A DNA stretch of 64,000 nucleotides from Chiloscyllium plagiosum (Eukaryota). A model generated the notes under the pieces. The model made no database searches. It saw only the letters and a program-made list of their open reading frames with translations, and was not told the DNA's origin. Location: contig NC_057727.1 in NCBI RefSeq assembly GCF_004010195.1, positions 32,854,507-32,918,506 on the forward strand, in the 5' to 3' direction. Made by a program: the position numbers and the translations under genes. Within the stretch, counting starts at the first letter, position 1, and every line of letters starts with the position of its first letter. Positions 19,175 to 58,845 of this stretch are shown here, one piece after another.

Positions 19175-19973
19175 GTATGGTGGAACTTAATTTCATAAGC
19201 ACATTTTTCAAAATTATATTTTTTTGCTTATTTTAAGGAAGCAGTAGCAAATTAAGACTTCATGTACAAAATAAAATTTAGTCTTTGAATTTTAGGAGTT
19301 AGTTTAGATTATGAACAATATTCATAACATAACTGATAGCTTAGAAAACAGATGTAACATTAACTAACTTTTCAGAAAGAATCGTATGAATAAAAAAGAA
19401 AGGATAGAATTAATATGTAATGATGGCAAAATAATTAGAAGAAACTGTGACTAGGACATTGTTTAACTCTATACTTGCTTGGCAGTCACAATACCAAATT
19501 TTGTTCTACTGTGGTTTAGGAGGAAGCCATTAGAGAGAAATTTTTAACTTGTTCTCCTCCTTCCAAAACAACAATACAGTTAAACACTATTAAATTCAAT
19601 AGCTTAATTTTAAAAAATAATTTTAATGATCATAATGATATAATTATAATAATTCTTTGGTATGTTTATAATCCTTTTATTCGGTTGAAAGTTAAATGAA
19701 AACATTTTGGTCATGATATCGGGTATGAGAACTGAAAGGATGGTCTTGCCATTCACCTCATGTATAAGTATCTAAAAACCATTCCCAGTTTGTCAAAAGT
19801 AATAACTTTTTCATTTGTCTTTGGTGGGATAATAGTGGATAATTGCCATAAATTCACACCATTGCCATAAGTTCATTGCCATTTTGCCATTGGTTCACAC
19901 CTGTGTATGGATTCTGCTTACCAAGGTTGCAATGTGTAGCCTGTGGACAGAAATTACTTCCCCAATTGCTGAA

Positions 19974-22900
19974 TGTAGTCATTGTAACAAAGTCTGCCAG
20001 GTGGATCTTCTAGAATATAAGTTCCCCAATTGCTGCTGTTAATCTGATCCAATCAGGGAATCCTGACTGACAGATAAAAAGAGGAATGTAAAAAAAAGAA
20101 CAGGAATATAAAAAAAAATAAACAGGGGACTAAGGGCAGTGTTTGTCACTGGCCACCCGGGTGTTTTCCTATCTTCCTGGTGGTGGAAATTGAATAAAGA
20201 TTGGTGCACTTTGTGTCTTCCACTGTGTCTCACACCTGCACATACACACCATGGGTGCTGGGGATAAAATAAGCACTACCGCACTTAGGTGGTAGTGTGG
20301 GGGTTAAATTATAAAAAAAAAAGAAAAAAAAAGGAATGTAAAAAAAAGAACAGGAATTAAAAAAATATATATATAAACAGGGGACTAAGGGCAGTGTTTG
20401 TCACTGGCCACCTGGGTGTTTTCCTATCTTCCTGGTGGTGGAATTTGAATAAAGATTTGTGCACTTTGTGTCTTTCACTGTGTCTCACACCTGCACACAC
20501 ACACACCATGGGTGCTGGGTATAAATAAGCACTACCGCACTTAGGCGGTAGTGTGGGGGAAAAAATAAATAAACAGGAGATTTTGGGCGTTTGCACTCCC
20601 TTTTTGATTTTCTGAAAAACCTCTTCCTCTGCTTTTGGCTGCACTTCAGTCCCACGCTCTAAAAAAAAATGAGGAATGTAAGAGCCCGGGTGTCCTTGGA
20701 GAAGGAGCACGCGGTGTCGACCAACACCCTGGGGTTGTTCAGGGAGAGGTGGGCGCCGCAGGGAGTGGAGTGCATTATTTCTCCCTCCAACTCTATTTTG
20801 ATTTAGTCCCTCCCCTCCCTTTCACTGTTTTGATCACACAGCACTGCCCTTTGATGTGAAGGGCAGTGTTTGTCACTGGCCACCCGGGTGTTTTCCTATC
20901 TTCCTGGTGGTGGAATTTGAATAAAGATTCGTGCACTTTGTGTCTTTCACTGTGTCTCACACCTGCACACACACACCATGGGTGCTGGGGCAAAAATAAG
21001 CACTACTGCACTTAGATGGTAGTGTAGGGGTTAAAAAAAAGAAAATTAAAAAAAGGAATGTAAGAGCCCGGGTGTCCTTGGAGAAGGAGCACGCGGTGTC
21101 GACCAACACCCTGGGGTTGTTCAGGGAGGGGTGGGTGCCGCAGGGAGTGGAGTGCATTATTTCTCCCTCCAACTCTATTTTGATTTAGTCCCTACCCTCC
21201 CCCTCACTGTTTTGATCACACAGCACTGCCCTTTGATGCAAAGGGCAGTGTTTGTCATTGGCCACCCGGGTGTTTTCTTATCTTCCTGGTGGTGGAATTT
21301 GAATAAAGAATCGTGCACTTTGTGTCTTTCACTGTGTCTCACACCTGCACACACACCATGGGTGCTGGGGAAAAAATAAGCACTACTGCACTTAGGTGGT
21401 AGTGTGGGGTTAATTAAAAAAAAAGAGGAATGTACTGCAGTTCGGCGGTAGTGTGGGGGTAAAAAGGGGAAAAAAAGAGTAAAAAAACATAGGAATGTCA
21501 GAGGTTCTGTTAAAAAAAAAGGAAGAAAAAAAGAAGAATGTCAGAATGGCAATCTGAGAGCTGGCTCTGAGGGCGCTAGACTAGTGTCAAGGATTTGGCA
21601 TATAAGGTGACTTTGTGATGGGATATCAGCCTTTGTGGAATTATTTCAGTGGCGAAGAGAGTAAAGCACATTCTTGAAGAAACTCACTCATAACAGTTGG
21701 CTTTGAGTTGAGGTAAACATTTTTGGCATCATGATTATTTGGGAAGCTTGACAACATTGCTGTTGAAAACTGGGGCCATTATATGGAAAAGTTGTGTTTT
21801 TTTTTTCCAAGGCAAATGACATTGGGGCAGATGAAAAGCAACGAATAATTCTCCTGACAGCTTGTGGATCGACAGCATTTTCAGTATTAAGAGTCTAACT
21901 TTCCCTGTGGCACCAGATACTAAAACCTTTCAAGAGTTAGTTTAGATTTAGTTGAGGAATATTACAGCCCAAGCCTCCTCAAATTCTGAGATGCTATTGC
22001 TTTTACTCAGCAATTCAAAAAACTAGGGAATCTGTATTGACTTTTTTGACTAGGTTAAGAAGACTGCAGAGGTTTAACCCTTAATGAGATGCAAAGAGAC
22101 GATTTGGTATGTGGGATTAATGATGTAACAATGCTGAAGCCCAACTGGACTTCAAATAGGTAAAGCTGGCTTTATCATTGGAAAATGTTGCAAGTGGAGC
22201 ATATAAGTTGCAAGGTATACCGATGAAAGTGGACACCCCTGCCAGTCTGACTGAGTTTGGGAAGCACCATCTGAATTAAGGAAATTGCATAGCCATACTC
22301 AGGATATATCCTGAACAGATGGACTGTAGGGCAGCCCACAGCAAAAACCCAAAACAAAGACAAACCTCAGCCAAACAGTTAAAGCCAAACAGTTAAAACA
22401 TTCTTGAGGATCTGGACGGGCAAGCCATTGTAATTGCAGACCTGAGACAGCAAAGGAGTCCTACTAGATCTAAACTCAGTAAGAGAACCCTTGGGCTGGT
22501 ATTCAGTAGGGTGTATATCCAGACCAAAGTTTGGTCTGGATTCCAACCCTTAAGTTTGCTCTGGATTCCAACCCTTAAGTTTGCTCAAGACCTTGGCTAG
22601 ACTGAGGACCTACACCAGGGAACCTTTACAGATTAAGGAACAACTTCGGTTCTGACCTCTTATGAGAAGTGGCTGGTTCTGTTACAACTGATTGTAGTAA
22701 CAGGCTGAGGCCAAGCTTGACGGAGCGAATTTGGTTGAGAAAGATTCACCTAGATTGGCTCAATACTCTTTGATTAGAAAATGGTTGCCTGGGTGAAGTT
22801 CTAATTAAATACCCAGAAGTCTTTCTGGAAGGTCTATGGACTAGCAAAGTCACCTTGAATGTTGACCAGGATGCAATTTCATATTTCTGTAAGAACTGCC

Positions 22901-24910
22901 CAGGGACATTTGCCTTTTGGGCAAAAGTAGAGGCCGAAATCAGAAGGTTGGAAAGTTAAAGAATCATCAAAGCAGTCCAGTTTGTGGAATGGGGAGCACC
23001 AGTCTTAACAATTTTGAAGCCCTATGAGTCGGTTTATCTTTGTAGGGATTTTAAACAAACCGTAAACCACTTTTTGCAGCTGGATAAATACCCAGATCCT
23101 TGCATAGAGGAGTGGGGGCTATCCTTCATGAAGCTGGACATGAGCCATGCATCTGAAATTGCAGTTAGATGAGAATTCCCAGAAGTATTCGATGATTAAT
23201 ACCCATTAGGATTTGTATGAAAAAGAGACTGCAATTTGAGGTATTGTCAGCCTCTACAATTTTTCAGTAGACAATGGTGAACATTTTGCAAGGTCTACCA
23301 CAGGTTGCCATTTATCTAGATAACATGCTAATAACAGGGAAGACCAATAAGGAACACTTAGAGAACTTGGGCATAGTCCTTAGACGTTTCTCCCAGGCAG
23401 GTGTATGCCTAAGAAGGGAATGATATCTGTTACAGTAAGTGACTTAGTTGGGCTACAGAGTCGACAGGAGTTTCTATACCGGAGTTTAGGACTTTCTTGT
23501 AGCTGGTGAATTATTACAGACAGTTCGTACGTAATCTGGCCTCCAGCATCCTAAACAAAACTCAGCCTTAGAAATGGTCACATGACCAAGCCATAACTTC
23601 CGGAGAAGTGAAGAAATAGCTATCATCTTCTAAGGTGTTGGTACACTGTGATCCCAAGTAAAATCTGGTATTAACATAAAGTACTTTCCCATACAGCATT
23701 AGGGTAGTATTAGCTTATAGGAGGCCCAGTGGAGAGGAACACTCAATAGTATTTGCATTTCAGACTTTGGCTCATACAGATGGAAGATGTACATAGCGGA
23801 AATATGCCCAGATAGAGAAGGAAGGTTTGACGGTCGTATTTGGAGTCAGCAAGTTCCACCAATACCTTTGCTGACATAAATTTGTGAAATTAATGGTTCA
23901 CAAACCCGTATTAGGTCTATTTAAAGAAGGCAAGGAAGTGCCGCCAAAAGTTCAGGCTGAATTCAGCGTTGGGCTATAAAACTAAGTGTGTATAGTTACA
24001 AGTTGGAACACCGTCTGGGAGGTCAAGTAGTGAATACGGATGCAATGAGCTACTTCCCATTGGCACTGGTGGAACTGCCACTTGAAGAATCCATAATGGT
24101 TTTACATTTTTTGGACACACTTCCAGTCACAGCTCACAATATCAGACTTTGGACGCAACAAGATGTAATCTCTATCAGGAATGCCAGGGTCAGATATTAG
24201 ATTCCACCCTGTGAGAGAGACAGTTTACTATAAGGGACAAAGTTTGGTGAGGGAACCACAGAAAGGGCCTGCATGGGTGAGAAGCTTGGTCAAAACAAAG
24301 TCTGGTCCACTAATGTATAAAGTTTGGGTAAGTGCAGTGGTCCTGAACAAGCATGTGGACCATATGAAACCTGCAAAGATGCAAATGGTGTGGCAGCAAA
24401 ACATGCCCTGCTCCTCGGAACAGTCATAATGGCTGTCAGAACCTGTGGATTTTCCCTCTCCATTAAGCGTTGAAGTGACCTTTGAATCGGCTATGGATTC
24501 AGCAGATCTCATTATGTAGACACCTTTGCCTCAGAATAAGACAGTGAATTTCTCTTGAGACAAGCTGGGCACAAGAGACTAACTGCTGTGCATTACACAC
24601 TGCTTGTATCGGATGTAGAGTCAGAAGAACCTGACCTGATGCTAAAAAGCCCCAGAAGGCACTGTAAAAGAAAGGACCAGCCTGTGCTCTCAGACTCAGA
24701 AGGAGAGGAATGTAGTGATTGTAATGATATCAGTCAAGGGGATCTCATAGGTTGGACCAGATTAACAGTCTCAGTCAGGGAGCCCTGGGCCTGGTTGATA
24801 GATAAAAAGAGGAATGTCAGATGTTCTGACACTCTGACGGATATATACTTTCCACATGTAAATAAAGGGTGATTTAGTGTTGGCATACCAGCCTTTGTGG
24901 AGTTACTTCA
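19974..24910 (+). mobile_element. Degenerate Ty3/Gypsy LTR retrotransposon with both LTRs and TSD
   Basis: 5' LTR 19974-21648 (interrupted) and 3' LTR 24711-24910, both TGTAGT...TTCA; CTGAA duplicated on both flanks; PBS-like TGGCGAAGAG at 21650; purine tract before the 3' LTR; RT YLDNMLITG (~23313); RNase H YAQIEKEGL..FGVSKFHQYL. No recognisable integrase core. Confidence 0.9.
20090..21541 (+). mobile_element. Tandem stack of 5'-truncated Tx1-clade LINE 3' ends inside the Gypsy 5' LTR
   Basis: Four 250-380-bp copies plus two short remnants, each ending in an A-rich tail followed by (A/G)GAATGT. 20678-20806 encodes VRARVSLEKEHAVSTNTLGLFRERWAPQGVECIISPSNSILI*, which resembles a Tx1 ORF2 C-terminus. 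Confidence 0.8.
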
Positions 24911-25238
24911 CTGAATAACTAAGCCATGCATCTGGCAGGGTATGAGACTGCTCACAGATTTGCTCTAGGACCAGGATTTTCTGTCAGTTTTATCATGCAA
25001 TGTCTATCTTTTTTTTTAAAACATGGGCTCAATTTCACCATCTGCAGTGGTGGAATTTGAACTCCGAGCCCCATAGCTTTAGTCTGAGATTCTGGATTAC
25101 TAGTGACAATATCACTATGCCACCTCCCTCATTTTTTAATTAGTAGAGTAAAATGAACCCTATGGACTTATTGCCTCCTGAATGTAAATGAAAGGAGTTA
25201 CCTTATGGGCTCAATGTAAACTTTTTCATTGCCTGTAG

Positions 25239-34829: not shown

Positions 34830-37800
34830 TCAAGAGGTCATTGTCCACATTTGAACCAACGACAGAGGAAGGGAAAAAGTTAAGATTCTGAAGGGAGATG
34901 ACAGAGAGTTAGGCAGGAATTTAAAAAGGAAGTCCTCGAGAGTAGTAATATCTGGATTACTCCCGGTCCTAGTGAGGGCAGGAATGGGAGGACAGAGCAG
35001 ATGAATGCATGGCTGAGGAGCTGGTGTATGGGAGAAGGATTCACATTTTTGGATCATTGGAATCTTTTTTGGAGTAGAAGTGATCTGTACAAGAAGGACG
35101 GATTGTACCTAAATTGGAAGGGGACTAATATACTGGCTGGGAGATTTGCTCGAGCTGCTCGGGAGGACTTAAATGAGTAAGGTGGGGGGACCCAGGGAGA
35201 TAGTGAGGAAAAGATCAATCTGAGACTGGTACAGTTGAGAACAGAAGCGAGTCAAACAGTCAGGGCAGGCAGGAACAAGGTAGGACTAATAAATTAAACT
35301 GCATTTATTTCAATGCAAGGGGCCTAACAGGGAAGGCAGATTAACTCAGGGCATGGTTAGGAACATGGGACTGGGATATCATAGCAATTACAGAAACATG
35401 ACTCCGGGATGGGCAAGACTGGCAGCTTAATGTTCCAGGATGCAAATGCTACAGGAAGGACAGCAAGGGAGGCAAGAGGAGGGGTAGTGGCGTTTTTGAT
35501 AAGGGATAGCATTACAGCTGTGCTGAGGGAGGATATTCCTGGAACTACATCCAGGGATGTTATTTGGGTGGAACTAATAAGAAAGGGATGATCACCTTAT
35601 TGGGATTGTATTATAGACCCCCAATAGTCAGAGGGAAATTGAGAAACAAACTTGTGAGGACATCTCAGCTATCTGTAAGAATAATAAGGTGGTTATGGAG
35701 GGGATTTTAACTTTCCAAACATAGACTGAGACTGCCATAGTGTTAAGGGTTTTTAGATTAGATTAGATTCCCTACAGTGTGGAAACAGACCCTTTGGCCC
35801 AACAAGTCCACATTGACCCTCGACGTGTTAAGTGCGTACAAGAAAATTTTCTGATTTAGTATGTGGATGTACCTACTACAGAAGGTGCAAAACTTGGCCT
35901 ACTCTTAGGAAACAAGGCAGGGCAGGTGACTGAGGTGTCAGTGGGGGAGCACTTTGGGGCCAGTGACCATAATTCTATTAGATTTAAAATACTGATGGAA
36001 AAGGATAGATCAGACCTAAAAGTTGAAGTTCTAAATTGGAGGAAGGCCAATTTTGATGGTATTCGGCAAGAACTTTCAAATGCTGACTGGGGATGGATGT
36101 TTGCAGGTAAAGGGACGGCTGGAAAATGAGAAGTCTTCAGAAGTGAGACAATAAGAATCCAGAGAAAGTATATTCCTGTTAGGGTGAAAGGAAAGGCTGG
36201 TAGGTATAGGGAACGCTGGATGACTAAAGAAATTGAGGGTTTGGTTAAGAAAAAGAAGGAAGCATAGGAAAGGTATAGACAGGATAGATCGAGTGAATCC
36301 TTAGAGTATAAACGCAGTAGGAGTATACTTATAGAGTCATAGAGATGTACAGCATGGAAACAGACCCTTCGGTTCAACCTGTCCACGCTGACCAGATATC
36401 GCAACCCAATCTAGTCCCACCTGCCAGCACCCTGGCTTGTCTTTACCGCCCTTCTTAAACAGTGGCACCACGTTTGCCAACCTCTGGTCTTCCGGAACCT
36501 CACCTGTGACTATCATTGATACAAATATCTCAGCAAGAGGCCCAGCAATCACTTCTCTAGCTTCCCACAGAAGTTCTCGGGTACACCTGATCTGGTCCTG
36601 GGGGTTTATCCACCTTTACCCTTTTCAAGACATCCAGCACTTCCTCCTCTGTATTCTGGACATTTTGCAAGATGTGGTCTTCCGGAACCTCACCTGTGAC
36701 TATCGTTGATACAAATATCTCAGCAAGAAGCCCAGCAATCACTTCTCTAGCTTCCCACAGAAGTTCTCGGGTACACCTGACCTGGTCCTGGGGGTTTATC
36801 CACCTTTACCCTTTTCAAGACATCCAGCACTTCCTCCTCTGTATTCTGGACATTTTGCAAGATGTCACCATCGATTTCCCTACAGTCTATATCTTCCATA
36901 TCCTTCTGGGCTCCCCAATCCCAGGGAACAGACCTTGTCTACTTATCCTATCCATGCCCCTCATAATTTTGTAAACCTCTATAAAGTTACCCCTCAGCCT
37001 CCGATGCTCCAGGGAAAACAGCCCCAGCCTCCTCTATAATAGGGACATTTTGCAAGGTATCACCATTTATTTCCCTACATTCTATATCTTCCATATCCTT
37101 TTCCACAGTAAATACTAATACAAAATATTCATTTAGTATCTTCCCCATTTTCTGTGCTCTACACAAAGGCTGCCTTGCTGATCATTGAGGGGCCATATTC
37201 TCTCCCTAGTTACCCTTTTGTCCTTAATGTATTTGTAAAATCCTTTGGATTTTCCTTAATTCTATTTGCCAAAGCTATCTCATGTCCCCTTTTTGCCCTC
37301 CTGATTTCCATCTTAAGTTTGCTGATGACACCAAAATTGGAGGTGTAGTGGACAGTGAAGAGGGTTACCTCAGATTACAACAGGATCTTGACCAGGTGGG
37401 CCAGTGTGCTGAGAAGTGGCAGATGGAGTTTAATTCAGATAAATGCGAGGTGCTGCATATTGGGAAAGCACATCTTACCAGTACTTATACACTTAATGGC
37501 AAGGTCCAAGGGAGTGTTGCTTAACAAAGAGACCTGGAGTGCAGGTTCATAGCTCCTTGAAAGTGGAGTCACAGGTAGATAGGATAGTGAAGAAGGTGTT
37601 TGGTATGCTTTCTTTTACTGGTCAGAGTATTGAGTACAGGAGTTGGGAGGTGATGTTGCGGCTGTACAGGACATTGGTTAGGCCGCTATTGGAATATTGT
37701 GTGCAATTCTGGTCTCCTTCTATCGCAAAGATGTAATGAAACTTGAAAGGGTTCAGAAAAGATTTACATGTACAAGGATGTTGCCAGAGTTGGAGGATTT

Positions 37801-54434: not shown

Positions 54435-55525
54435 AGGCAAGGACTGATTAGGGATAGTCAACATGACTTTGTGCGTGGGAAATCATGTCTCACAAACTTG
54501 ATTGAGTTTTTTGAAGAAGTAACAAAGAAGATGATGAGGGCAGAGCAGTAGATGTGATCTAAATGGACTTCAGTAAGGCGTTCGACAAGGTTCCCCATGG
54601 GAGATTGATTAGCAAGGTTAGGTCTCATGGAATAAAGGGAGAACTAGCCATTTGGATACAGAACTAGCTCAAAGGTAGAAGACAAAGGGTGGTGGTGGGG
54701 GGTTGTTTTTCAGACTAGAGGCCTGTGACCAGTGGAGTGCCACAAGGATCGGTGCTGGGTCCTCTACTTTTTGTCATTTACATAAATGATTTGGATGCGA
54801 GCATAAGAGGTACAGTTAGTAAGTTTGCAGATGACATCAAAATTGGAGGTGTAGTGGACAGTGAAGAGGGTTACCTCAGATTACAACAGGAACTTGATCA
54901 GTTGGGCCAATGGGGTGAGAAATGGCAGATGGAGTTTAATTCANNNNNNNNNNNNNNNNNNNNNNNNNNNNNNNNNNNNNNNNNNNNNNNNNNNNNNNNN
55001 NNNNNNNNNNNNNNNNNNNNNNNNNNNNNNNNNNNNNNNNNNNNNNNNNNNNNNNNNNNNNNNNNNNNNNNNNNNNNNNNTGGAGGATTTGAGCTATAGG
55101 GAGAGGCTGAACAGGCTGGGGCTGTTTTCCCTGGAGCGTCGGAGGCTGAGGGGTGACCTTATAGAGGTTTACAAAATTATGAGGGGCATGGATAGGATAA
55201 ATAGACAAAGTCTTTTCCCTGGGATTGGGGTGTCCAGAACTAGAGGGCATAGGTTTAGGGTGAGGGGGGGAAAAATATAAAAGAGACCTAAGGGGCAACT
55301 TTTTCACACAGAGGGTAGTATGTGTATGGAATGAGCTGCCAGAGGATGTGGTGGAGGCAGTACAATTGCAACAGTTAAGAGGCATTTGGATGGGTATATG
55401 AATAGGAAGGTTTTGGAGGGATATGGGCCAGGTGCTGGCAGGTGGGACTAGATTGGGTTGGGATATCTGGTTGGTGTGGACGGGTTGGACCGAAGGGTCT
55501 GTTTCCGTGCTGTACATCTCCATGA
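54435..55525 (+). mobile_element. CR1 3' part (RT and tail) spanning an assembly gap
   Basis: GVPQGSVLGPLLF...SKFADD; LSYRERLNRLGLFSLERRRLRGDL. Confidence 0.9.
54944..55080. other. Assembly gap (N run)
   Basis: 137 consecutive N. Confidence 0.99.
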
Positions 55526-57154
55526 TATTCTTGTAAAAAAGTGTCAGTCCCAACTTAAATAACTGCCACTGTACGTCAGTATTCATCAAGAAGATCAGTC
55601 TCTTAACTGTTGGAGTTCAGACCATATTGATGTCAGTGATAATTATAGTTTCTTTACTTGTTTTGGTAAACAAATTTTCTGACACTTATTGTCAGAAAGA
55701 ACTCTATTGCAGAGTTCATTTTACAAGAGCTAACATAATAGATAATGTTTGCTGACACTGGAACTGCAGAGCTACTGTGCATACACATGACTCTGAACAT
55801 CATATGCATAGTGCAGACTTTGCACATACACAGAACAGGTGCAACACTGAAACAGAATTGGGATGGGTCTGTGGGGAGAAAACTGACAGGGTTTTGAGGG
55901 CTGCTAAGCCCTGAAGATAAATTTGCCTCTTATTCTTTTATATTCCACTGAATATAAGCCTAACCTCCTCAACCCCTCCTCATTAAAAAAAATCCCCCTT
56001 ACCCAAAATTGACCTAGTAAACCTTCTCTGGACTGCTTTCAACGTCAGTGTTTCTATCCTTATATATGAGGAATTGAAATTACTGTTTGCAGAACTTCAG
56101 CTGTGTACTAACTATTGCCTTGGATAGTTTTAGCAAGACTTCCCTATTTTTATATTCCATTCACTTTGAAGTAAAGGCCAGCACAGTTACATTGCCATTA
56201 CCTGAACTTGTATGCTAGCTTTTTATGATTTATGAATGAAACTTCCTCATATATGGAAGCTTTCTCTTTTAATATTATTCTCCTTTATCCTTCCTGCCAA
56301 ACACGTTGTATTCCATCTGCCATGCCTCTGCTCAAATCACTTGCCTAGATCCTTCTGCAGACATTGTCATTGTCACCACTTGCTTCCCACCTATTTTGTG
56401 TCATCAACAATTTGGCAGTACAATAATCTCTCACCCAAGTCATTATGATACACTTTTTCTCTGATAACTCTTTTGTGTTTTGCACATCTTTTCACAGTTT
56501 TGGGACTTTCCATCAGATCCGCATGTGGTATATTTCCTTCTATATGAAATTGTGGTTATCACACCTCTCACACATCTTTCTCTCCAGTCCAAAAAACGAT
56601 ATTTGTTGACCCTTTTAGCCATTGCTGTGTTTAGGTATTGGACGTTAATTTCCATCTAAAAACAAACTGTTCAAACTGTCATCTTCATGGCAGCCTGGGC
56701 CTCCCTTTTCACTCTGGGTTGGTGACATGCGTTCATATTGCTGCACCATTTGGTTATTTTTGTACCATTCATAGTACTTTCCCTCTGGTACTAATCCAAC
56801 ATCCACTTGGTTTACAGTGATTAAGTTTTACTCAAATACCAGCCATCGCCGCATCTTTCTTGTGGTTCAACGGAATTTGAAAGAATAAATGTTAATCTTT
56901 TCCTCATCTCCATGTGTGGCGGAGTGATTACACGGTCGGTTCATACTGAGTGACAAGGCATTCTGGGTGTACATACACAAGACCATCTAGTTCCTGAACA
57001 ATTTTTGAAATAAATTAAACAATAATCCTCCTGCCGGCGGCGCCCACCCAGTTTTTGTAATTTCGCTCCACAGAATGTATTTAGTATTTTAATGTATTTC
57101 TAATCGGAAGCTGATATCTTTTCTGTTGGGGATCCCACGGCAGAGCTGGGCCCC

Positions 57155-58390
57155 ATGTGCGGCCTGGTCGGTGTCGCCGTCCGCTCTCTGCCCTCAGCCG
57201 GTTTGCAGCGGCTCGCTGCCCGCTTCTCCTCGAGCCGGAGCCGGAGGCCGAGCGCGGGCTCGGCGGCCATGCAGACCGCTGTTGTCCGCTGTGTCCCCAC
57301 CGAGACCAAGTTGACCATCTCGCTGCGGCTGGGGCCCGAGGGAGGAAGCCAGCGGCATCTGCAGCGGGAGCAGAGCGAGAGCCTGCAAACTGCGCTCGGC
57401 CGCATCGCCCACAACCTGGTCAAAGCTCAGGCCAAGAAAACCAAGAAAGGCCGCAAAGAGGCGGCCTCGGCCCAGGCCCCAGCTCAGGCCTCGGCCCCTC
57501 CTGTGACCCTGTACCAGGGAGAACAACCGGTTCCCGGGGACACGAGTAACGCCGAGGCCTGGCAGGATGGAGCTATCTTACAGGTGGGCGAGTCCAGGTA
57601 CCGAGTGGAGAGAAACCCGCCCAGTCTGACCCAGCTGCGGTTACCCACCTCCATCCTGGCCGGCTTCCCGGTCTGCCCCAAGGTGGAGGTGGAGTTCGGC
57701 GAGGCCTCGCACTCGTTGTTCGAGTGGTGGCTGAAGGAGGCGAGCGGTAGCTGGGAACCAGCGGCTAACGGCCGGGTCTTCACCCCGAGCAACGGCCACA
57801 TCGGCCTGAAGCTCAAGCTGAGATGTCACCCGGGCGACGGGCGGCGTTTCGGGGCGCCGGTGGAGCTGGAGAGTGACGGCGTGGTGGAGGCCGGCCCCGG
57901 GGCTTGTACCTTCGACAGCCGCCAGTGGCTCACCCGCCGGGCCCCGGAGGAACCGCTGCTCCGCGTGGTTTCTTACAACATCCTGGCCGACGTGTACGCT
58001 CAGACCGAGCTCTCCAAGAACACCCTGTACCCTTACTGTCCCCCCTATGCACTCGAGCTCGATTACAGGCAGAACCTCATCAAAAAAGAGCTCAGTGGCT
58101 ACAACGCCGACATCATCTGTCTCCAGGAGGTGGACAAGAGTGTTTTTACCAACAGCTTGTCCCCGGCCCTTGATGCTTTCGGCTTTCAAGGAGCATTTCG
58201 CATCAAAGAGAAGCAACACGAAGGCCTAGCAACTTTCTTCAGAGCCTCCAAGTACCGGCTGCTAAGTCAGCATGATGTGACCTTGAGCGAGGCTTTAGTT
58301 TCGGACCCTTTACACACCGAGATTTTGGAAAAGATTTCTACGAATCCTCAAGTTAAAGAAAAAGTCTTGCAAAGATCAACCACTCTCCAG
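57155..58390 (+). CDS. pde12: 2',5'-phosphodiesterase 12 (mitochondrial deadenylase), exon 1; later exons not found in the window
   Basis: GC-rich 412-codon exon ending CAG|GTACTG; Arg/Ser-rich N-terminus resembling a mitochondrial transit peptide; AVVRCVP, VEAGPGACTFD; EEP motifs VSYNILAD, YRQNLIKKELSGYNADIICLQEVD and EGLATF. Confidence 0.96.
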
Positions 58391-58845
58391 GTACTGTGGC
58401 AGATTGGAAATTTAGTGTTAATAAATGGAATAAATACCTAATAATTGCAGTATAATATCTGCTCGTTAAAACGCACTGTAATGAACAACATTGTAACAAA
58501 ATGACGGATATCCATTTAAAGAATAATATACAACATGACTGAGATCGTCAGAATGTTGTAGCATCAAGCTACTGCTAAACAGCCGAAATCCTAAAATGTG
58601 TTTGTTAGATTTTAGTATCGGAATCTATAACCTGGGATGGAGTGACTGAGCATCTTAAAATCGTTCACTGATCAGAGAGTTTGTAAATGTTGTCCTGCCT
58701 GACAAACCTTTTTTTAAAAAAAGTGGCCATGTATGGATGTTATTTCTACGACTCTCTAGAAGGCATATGATAAAACTCCCAAATTGAAGACAAATCATTA
58801 ACTTTTGATAAGAAATTAACTGCAGCAAGAGACTGGGTAGGGATT

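Follow-up and report, generated by a model that had tools for sequence, protein, structure and literature searches.

A Tx1-clade LINE of Chiloscyllium plagiosum that prefers sites about 22 bases downstream of CCAAT boxes and piles up in an old LTR

Site choice by long interspersed nuclear elements (LINEs) with an apurinic/apyrimidinic (AP-type) endonuclease is usually credited to this enzyme, which reads the DNA at the nick. The element Tx1L of Xenopus laevis nicks one defined sequence in another transposon, Tx1D (PMC1950540; here and below, papers are cited for excerpts of their text). Tx1 families that target long terminal repeats (LTRs), with tandem insertions around a target-site duplication (TSD), are already published, the crocodilian Tx1-8_Crp and Tx1-4_AMi favouring LTR retrotransposons (Kojima 2015, PMC4494074). 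The element described here is a LINE stacked in the 5' LTR of an old retrotransposon of Chiloscyllium plagiosum, within 64,000 nucleotides of contig NC_057727.1 (positions 32,854,507 to 32,918,506, forward strand, assembly GCF_004010195.1; this whole stretch is called the window). The LINE very probably prefers sites about 22 bases downstream of a same-strand CCAAT box, and its copies would pile up in the old LTR because of this preference; within a wider CCAAT rule, this LTR supplies suitable sites most often. The targeting rule is the new part.

Like Tx1L, the LINE inserts into another transposon; unlike Tx1L, it has a loose cut site, with the determinant about 22 nt away (PMC1950540). It shares tandem insertions around the TSD with Tx1-8_Crp, Tx1-4_AMi and the SINEU-3 tandems, for which transcription from the flank was suggested, whereas the main-text portion of that paper holds no CCAAT rule, polarity or junction copying (PMC4494074). 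Two target regions in the same text show no recognisable similarity to each other, and a determinant at a distance could account for this. TRE5-A of Dictyostelium is likewise a non-LTR element whose insertions keep a defined spacing and orientation relative to the site of a transcription factor. It is, however, an L1-clade element of an amoeba, whose ORF1p was shown to bind TFIIIB at tRNA genes transcribed by RNA polymerase III (Pol III), while here the motif is that of an RNA polymerase II (Pol II) factor in a vertebrate and the interaction is putative (PMC5911963). In R2Bm, too, the determinant lies 20-40 bp upstream of the nick and the 5' end is joined via pairing of cDNA and target, but R2Bm has a restriction-like endonuclease, DNA-binding domains of its own and a strict 28S site (PMC6895275). 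TART of Drosophila also forms head-to-tail arrays and repeats subterminal 3' untranslated region (3'UTR) at its 5' end to a variable extent; it differs in adding to chromosome ends and in a far longer repeat, where the LINE has about 50-100 nt and then an LTR-like piece (PMC1636488). A CCAAT-anchored LINE was not described in the titles and abstract openings searched (closed-access papers and Repbase were outside the search), and no NF-Y-type guidance of a vertebrate LINE was found described in the open-access literature.

The assembly searched comprises 3.56 Gb, in which five exact 3'-end patterns of the LINE gave 279, 172, 142, 853 and 22 matches. Loci were taken from 90 of the first 100 places of pattern 1 (87 independent; discovery set), 90 of the second pattern (87; held-out set 1) and 122 of the three others (105; held-out set 2), 40 loci of the last set being chosen as apparent singletons. 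Dropped for overlap were L033, L053 and L054, L184, L192 and L199, 17 of the 122 in held-out set 2, and the BLAST loci L001, L004, L010, L012 and L021. Also dropped were L092 (degraded LTR) and L179 (TSD call inside an array), and L394 was a false 'filled' call. The left or right half of the LTR was found by one pipeline at the insertion site of 46/87, 45/87 and 52/105 loci, together 143/279, which is a lower bound owing to gaps and locus edges; the first pipeline and block definition gave 52/87. The LTR is rare in control DNA (25 match bins in 514,673 bases). Each locus with a minus-strand LTR match also has a plus-strand match, which is explained by an internal inverted repeat, and the insertion orientation is therefore fixed. 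A Tx1 family was called target-specific where one sequence type makes up more than 20% of flanks (Kojima 2015, PMC4494074), and the LINE lies above this value. Sampled from the LTR side with a downstream 32-mer, 8 of 50 LTR copies were filled by this LINE and 4 more by other A-tailed inserts.

The original prediction held that the family recognises this LTR, with GGAATGT as its target. A strong same-orientation preference for one LTR site stands; confinement to the LTR does not, about half of the sampled loci lying elsewhere or being unassignable. In filled LTRs, ATAAAC is the most frequent site word (45/113), and GGAATGT is a variant of this LTR copy only. The nick sequence is not conserved across sites as in the strictly sequence-specific R1Bm and Tx1L; non-LTR sites have in common only T|A-rich letters at the nick, which the TSD caller partly imposes. 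Occupation is denser in the LTR, with a mean of 3.6 units per locus (n=126) against 1.5 at non-LTR loci (n=66).

The CCAAT preference was measured as an exact box ending 19-24 nt upstream of the TSD, a range fixed after the discovery junctions had been read and before the held-out loci were fetched, with an automatic TSD caller blind to the motif. At LTR loci the modal spacing is 22 nt (16 of the 31 loci with a TSD call). Away from the LTR the exact box was present at 10/34 discovery sites (background 1.1%), at 2/9 sites of held-out set 1 (P 0.002) and at 4/23 of held-out set 2 (P 4e-5). The pooled held-out count of 6/32 has P 3e-7 over a background of about 1%. All non-LTR sites together gave 16/66, or 14/61 once sites in related repeats were merged; L099, L188 and L298, where CCAAT was seen by eye and no automatic TSD call was made, are not counted. 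CCAAT at this distance ranks first of 95,232 tests of 5-mer and offset (Bonferroni 4e-14). With one mismatch allowed, a box is present at 27/66 non-LTR sites over a background of 11%. Sites hit repeatedly have CCAAT within one mismatch more often (9/13) than sites hit once (18/53; P 0.03). The spacers at non-LTR CCAAT sites are not LTR-like, with 3-8 of 18 letters identical. A reverse-strand ATTGG rule, suspected by eye, was dropped, as ATTGG occurs at the same spacing at 2/66 non-LTR sites, which is not significant.

Among LTR copies, CCAAT is intact in 95/113 filled and 11/26 empty ones (P 3e-5), or 22/49 when 23 more empties are added (P 9e-7). Four spacer 5-mers show no gain in filled LTRs and are, if anything, better kept in empty ones, and the site columns at the cut are likewise not better kept in filled copies. 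These columns bear on the model of the original prediction, in which a sequence-specific endonuclease reads the LTR word at the cut and non-LTR copies are misses. The concentration of 143/279 loci at a single site of an LTR that is rare in control DNA would fit that model, while the CCAAT columns alone are better kept in filled LTRs, and non-LTR sites show no common LTR-like word beyond an A-rich start. The model is largely refuted and is considered very improbable. Two purines before CCAAT, found in 34/95 filled and 0/22 empty LTRs, would suit NF-Y but were not used as support, being confounded by LTR subfamily and sampling.

Several observations weigh against the CCAAT rule. The exact box is absent at 50/66 non-LTR sites and even a one-mismatch word at 39/66, and the rule is therefore a preference. 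TSDs were callable in part of the non-LTR loci (10/42 and 23/53 in the held-out sets), many others abutting N gaps or locus ends. Eighteen of the 113 filled LTRs lack the exact box, and the filled and empty sets were sampled differently, which makes LTR subfamily a confounder of that comparison, although the natural variation points to weaker targeting where the box is lost. The upstream reverse box of the LTR, ATTGG, does not differ significantly between filled (56/113) and empty copies (19/49; P 0.23).

A further element, whose 3' end is unrelated (160 exact matches), occupies the same LTR site in 14 of 29 loci; at its non-LTR sites an exact CCAAT was seen by eye in 2/9, with one-mismatch words at 4 more. 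Its own upstream sequence holds no coding match to Tx1L in the 29 loci. The element is A-tailed (L100, L154, L160, L433-L462), its 3' region is long and non-coding, and its copies are stacked at the LTR site, intermingled with the LINE in shared arrays; it may be a partner or a sister family.

A few loci are recorded separately. Two pairs of non-LTR insertions (L007 with L229, L022 with L330) sit at homologous CCAAT-bearing spots of two other repeats. Four insertions (L124, L312, L361, L373) fall within about 30 nt in another repeat family, with no exact CCAAT at the usual spacing. In L401 and L414 the LTR's own right half plus an A tail is inserted at the site, either through an extended duplication or as the end of an LTR transcript that was mobilised.

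The two LTRs of the window show the same contrast, a filled 5' LTR with CCAAT at 22 nt and an empty 3' LTR with TCAGT at 28 nt. The features of the host element are:

19969-19973, no strand: CTGAA, the 5-bp target duplication at the left end of the LTR element; the same word lies at 24911-24915
19974-20089, plus strand: left part of the 5' LTR, U3-like, up to the cut site (from alignment to the 3' LTR)
20049-20053, plus strand: CCAAT box, intact, with 22 nt between it and the first base of the target duplication downstream
20076-20089, plus strand: local target site and TSD AAAAAGAGGAATGT, where the LTR has its TATA-like position; every local insertion is followed by another copy
21542-21648, plus strand: right part of the 5' LTR, ending in TTCA (from alignment)
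21649-24710, plus strand: decayed internal region, with a primer-binding-site-like (PBS-like) TGGCGAAGAGA at 21650, broken pol pieces and a purine tract before 24711
24711-24910, plus strand: empty 3' LTR, where TCAGT (24771-24775) replaces CCAAT and the spacer to the site 24804-24817 is 28 nt long
24911-24915, no strand: right 5-bp target duplication CTGAA, matching 19969-19973

Both LTRs belong to one element (19974-24910), since they have TG..CA ends and CTGAA lies at both outer flanks; a PBS and a polypurine tract are present. Over long matches, the closest LTR relatives in the genome are no more than about 67-75% alike, and the element is therefore old. We take it to be a Gypsy-type element from its motifs and structure. 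Examined for the RT-RH-IN order and a Gypsy reverse transcriptase, the five pol pieces scanned gave only a weak RVT_1 match (E 0.003) in one of them, and a PDB search with the pol pieces had no match. A segment of the LTR between two inverted CCAAT-bearing arms occurs in either orientation (LTR copies L062-L090), and in the window's two LTRs this segment (20023-20052 and 24752-24781) has opposite orientations; the flip alters the letters before CCAAT.

NF-Y is the likelier cause of the CCAAT preference, at a probability of roughly 0.6. The site of NF-Y is RRCCAATSR (PMC11802806). Around the 16 non-LTR boxes a purine occupies -2 and -1 in 13/16 each, C or G occupies +1 in 13/16 and a purine +2 in 14/16. 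The full RRCCAATSR is present in 10/16 insertion-site boxes and 29/280 background boxes (P 6e-7). Set distance and orientation to a factor's motif, as in TRE5-A, are thus found here. NF-YB is placed about 15 bp downstream of CCAAT (PMC3730095), and NF-Y binds LTRs and closed chromatin (PMC3730095, PMC12065363). In male germ cells it is prominent in stem stages (PMC11802806) and opens chromatin (PMC11802806, PMC13083884). On this proposal, NF-Y at CCAAT would position the nick, and a loosely specific endonuclease would cut T|ATAAA-like words just past the downstream edge of NF-Y, either tethered by an element protein or entering passively at the footprint edge. The old LTR family would be the main target because it offers thousands of sites with CCAAT, 22 nt and TATAAA. 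It is suggested tentatively that the LINE is physically tethered by one of its proteins to NF-Y, a Pol II pioneer factor, and inserts two helical turns downstream of an occupied box, LTR promoters serving it both for landing and for transcription.

Against guidance by NF-Y stand properties of two other elements: the endonuclease of Tx1L, the closest characterised relative, nicks its own target specifically by itself (PMC1950540), and the R2Bm protein footprints -40 to -20 (PMC6895275). Direct reading by the element is therefore a live alternative and the chief rival. The element's own protein would then recognise a bipartite target, CCAAT two helical turns upstream and the A-rich nick, with no host factor; constant spacing and a single orientation fit this, as do the upstream footprint of R2Bm and the specificity of Tx1L. 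It is nevertheless thought unlikely. The flanks of the non-LTR boxes follow the NF-Y consensus (A at -1 in 8/16 and G at +1 in 5/16) and not the GGTCCAATC/GGGCCAATC context of the LTR, the main home of the LINE, and in the 891-aa part of open reading frame 2 (ORF2) scanned, Pfam finds only endonuclease and reverse transcriptase (RT), with no R2-like extra N-terminal DNA-binding domain.

The main site is the TATA-like word of the LTR, and L022, L032 and L382 resemble CCAAT-TATA promoters, so that the core promoter itself (TBP or the pre-initiation complex at TATA, aided by NF-Y) might be targeted, with CCAAT as a mere marker of active promoters. This explanation is improbable. No TATA-like word is present at the cut in L023 (ACAATTC), L026 (ACAAGG) or L365 (GAAAACC), where the spacing of 20-24 is retained. 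Moreover, promoter CCAAT boxes act in either orientation (PMC3730095), while the signal here is one-sided, 16 against 2.

If guidance by NF-Y is true, factor-guided insertion of non-LTR elements, known from Pol III genes of an amoeba, extends to vertebrate Pol II promoters, and thousands of insertions mark NF-Y sites of the germline in an animal for which maps of this kind do not exist. One retroelement apparently lives off the promoter of another. A CCAAT determinant is a testable reason for the seemingly unrelated transposon targets of Tx1 relatives, and the tether rule, if true, may also lie behind other Tx1 families for which transposon targets have been reported. The CCAAT rule also accounts for polar arrays and shared junctions, of which the window holds an example.

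The insert occupies 20090-21541 (1452 nt) with every unit on the plus strand, in agreement with the same-orientation stack of about 1.45 kb read from the letters beforehand. The empty site foreseen in the 3' LTR is present at 24804-24817. GAATGT motifs end at 20089, 20339, 20679, 21061, 21433, 21498 and 21541, which corrects one of the seven predicted ends (21497) by a base. With the local duplication AAAAAGAGGAATGT as the divider between local insertions, five are obtained:

20090-20339, plus strand: insertion I1, probably the youngest; first carried-in tail and site words (20090-20131), then 3'UTR (20132-20302), an A tail and a copy of the TSD
20340-20679, plus strand: insertion I2, with the 5' junction of I1; 3'UTR at 20387-20558, then a foreign site word, the ORF2 fragment at 20584-20659, a tail and a copy of the TSD
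20680-21061, plus strand: insertion I3; last 41 ORF2 codons (20681-20803, stop 20804-20806), 3'UTR, tail, TSD copy
21062-21433, plus strand: insertion I4, with the 5' junction of I3; also starts with the last 41 codons of ORF2
21434-21541, plus strand: insertion I5, probably the oldest; some 27 nt from the 3' end of an older subfamily, then a tail, an LTR piece carried in (21489-21511), another tail and a copy of the TSD

Behind the motif ending at 21498 stands CAGAGGTTCTGTT instead of the right flank that belongs to this LTR; the motif is probably part of a different LTR copy that was brought in, hence the count of five. The longest copies, I3 and I4, encode the Tx1-like ORF2 C-terminus as predicted, while the earlier description of I2 had overlooked its internal ORF2 fragment of 76 nt (20584-20659), which comes after the foreign site word AAACAGGAGAT. 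Of the three local 5' truncation points proposed (about 20132, 20680 and 21434), the first is probably not local, because locus L027 has the junction too and 43 units of the family start there, more than at any other 5' position.

The array is not misassembled as far as public contigs allow testing. The left junction is covered by a contig of public run X6, from another study (19500-20157, 0 substitutions, 12 gap letters), and the right end by a contig of run X1 (21380-21826, 2 differences), which may be the assembled sample itself. X1 contigs also extend across the inner junctions, where one side has just 22 letters. From a related organism (X13), one contig aligns with 21438-21684 at 11 differences, covering I5. 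None of the public-run contigs spans the full array, and no empty allele of the locus was seen, the contigs of organism B not covering the left flank.

A single insertion multiplied through tandem duplication, or an artefact of assembly, is a hardly credible origin of the array. In its favour, one junction is common to I3 and I4, as are two rare alleles, q54G (4%) and q326T (10%), and the whole array is spanned by no contig. On the other side are three subfamily types in age order (I5 of the old type, I1 and I2 of the youngest), differing tails and contents, both ends in public contigs, and I5 in the related organism. I1 belongs to subfamily A2, the class of lowest divergence, and is discordant with I2 at the family-polymorphic columns q237, q251 and q336. 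I3 and I4 have 11 differences in 351 columns, and for them a common source and local duplication cannot be told apart; tandem duplication applies at most to this pair.

The caution that pairs 1/2 and 3/4 might be tandem duplications was thus justified, although shared junctions in the family at large appear mostly not to be plain duplications. Among 115 same-junction neighbour pairs, shared rare variants number 66, 23 and 6 from the 5' to the 3' third, and subfamily discordance rises from 7 to 19 to 26% (random pairs 35%). This 5'-biased sharing with 3'-rising discordance, which also speaks against duplication of a single insertion, suggests that the 5' part comes from the resident unit and the 3' part from a new RNA, so that most such neighbours would be chimeras. 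I1/I2 are consistent with this model. New cDNA would often pair with a resident copy, or with the LTR just downstream, and so join the resident 5' junction to a new 3' end.

Arrays grow serially over time at their CCAAT (upstream) end, which bears out the serial re-insertion proposed originally. Younger subfamilies lie upstream of older ones by counts of 72:20 and 55:6 loci; of 171 arrays, 115 have a first unit of lower divergence than the last, and 50 one of higher divergence. Carried-in pieces could inflate such unrestricted counts; restricted to events bounded by a locus-specific TSD, the polarity is 10:2 (P 0.04). Weaker age order among same-junction pairs alone (13:6) counts against serial growth. 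Upstream growth would follow because, after an insertion, only the upstream TSD copy stays 22 nt from the box.

Pieces of LTR arrays are found within other insertions. LTR-site words occur inside 24/66 non-LTR inserts and in the flanks of 3, from which we infer that the source copies lie in LTR arrays and are read through. The LTR pieces behind AATAAA-type words are 8-61 nt long (12/19 at 25 or less), and L125 and L263 carry the same LTR piece. Copies in arrays would thus be transcribed beyond their tail and the transcript cut shortly after, often behind an AATAAA formed by tail and site, and in this way LTR-array pieces would travel.

The LINE belongs to the Tx1 clade, as had been predicted. 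Twenty loci have the endonuclease region, copies of about 7.2 kb among them. L161 holds an unbroken 891-aa ORF2 piece with AP-type endonuclease and RT (Pfam Exo_endo_phos 49.4 bits, RVT_1 105.3 bits), which is 50% identical to Xenopus Tx1L (YTX2, P0008) over 98% of its length. In an RT tree of 24 rows the LINE falls in one 100/100 clade with Tx1L and sturgeon and turtle copies (6/24 rows); the tree is midpoint-rooted, with no L1 outgroup and without Keno, Kibi, Koshi and Tx1-Mar by name. A candidate CCHC zinc knuckle of ORF1 scored 19.8 and 15.3 bits (zf-CCHC) in 2 of 5 broken ORF1 pieces, under the cut-off of 20.8. A PDB search returned relatives of L1 and R2 only. Target duplications are 11-19 nt long (mode 15) at 43 non-LTR sites and 13-17 nt at 23 more, with A tails present. 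Three subfamilies have divergences of 1.1, 1.4 and 2.9%. Raw polyA reads of run X21 are mostly in one orientation with A-rich loose ends, 90-99% alike; they represent the family at large, show no start or end, and were not used as support for expression.

At the 5' end (21 rows) the element's own 3'UTR is copied wherever the upstream part belongs to the family. This repeat of about 50-100 nt is fused near column 214-223 in most rows, with varying start points. An LTR-like piece follows it, with a local score of 31-42 in 15/24 LTR copies (maximum 30 in 1200 shuffles), although the piece was chosen after being seen; in L159 the right half of the LTR runs directly into it. The full-length 5' end may be a fossil of transcription from an LTR promoter through an array. 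A SINE or small-RNA head was considered and rejected: Rfam on 8 loci found one 5S rRNA only, fused to a truncated copy, and the long copies have ORF1 and ORF2. The 5S rRNA fusions at the 5' end of truncated copies (L038:817-941 by Rfam, L204 by eye) are likely template switches.

Elsewhere in the window, a 25-bp tandem repeat lies inside the LTR element (22527-22586), a 190-bp tandem duplication at 36485-36865 and an N gap of 137 bases at 54944-55080. A GC-rich open frame of 445 aa (57104-58441, plus strand) resembles the first exon of a nuclease gene, presumably PDE12-like.

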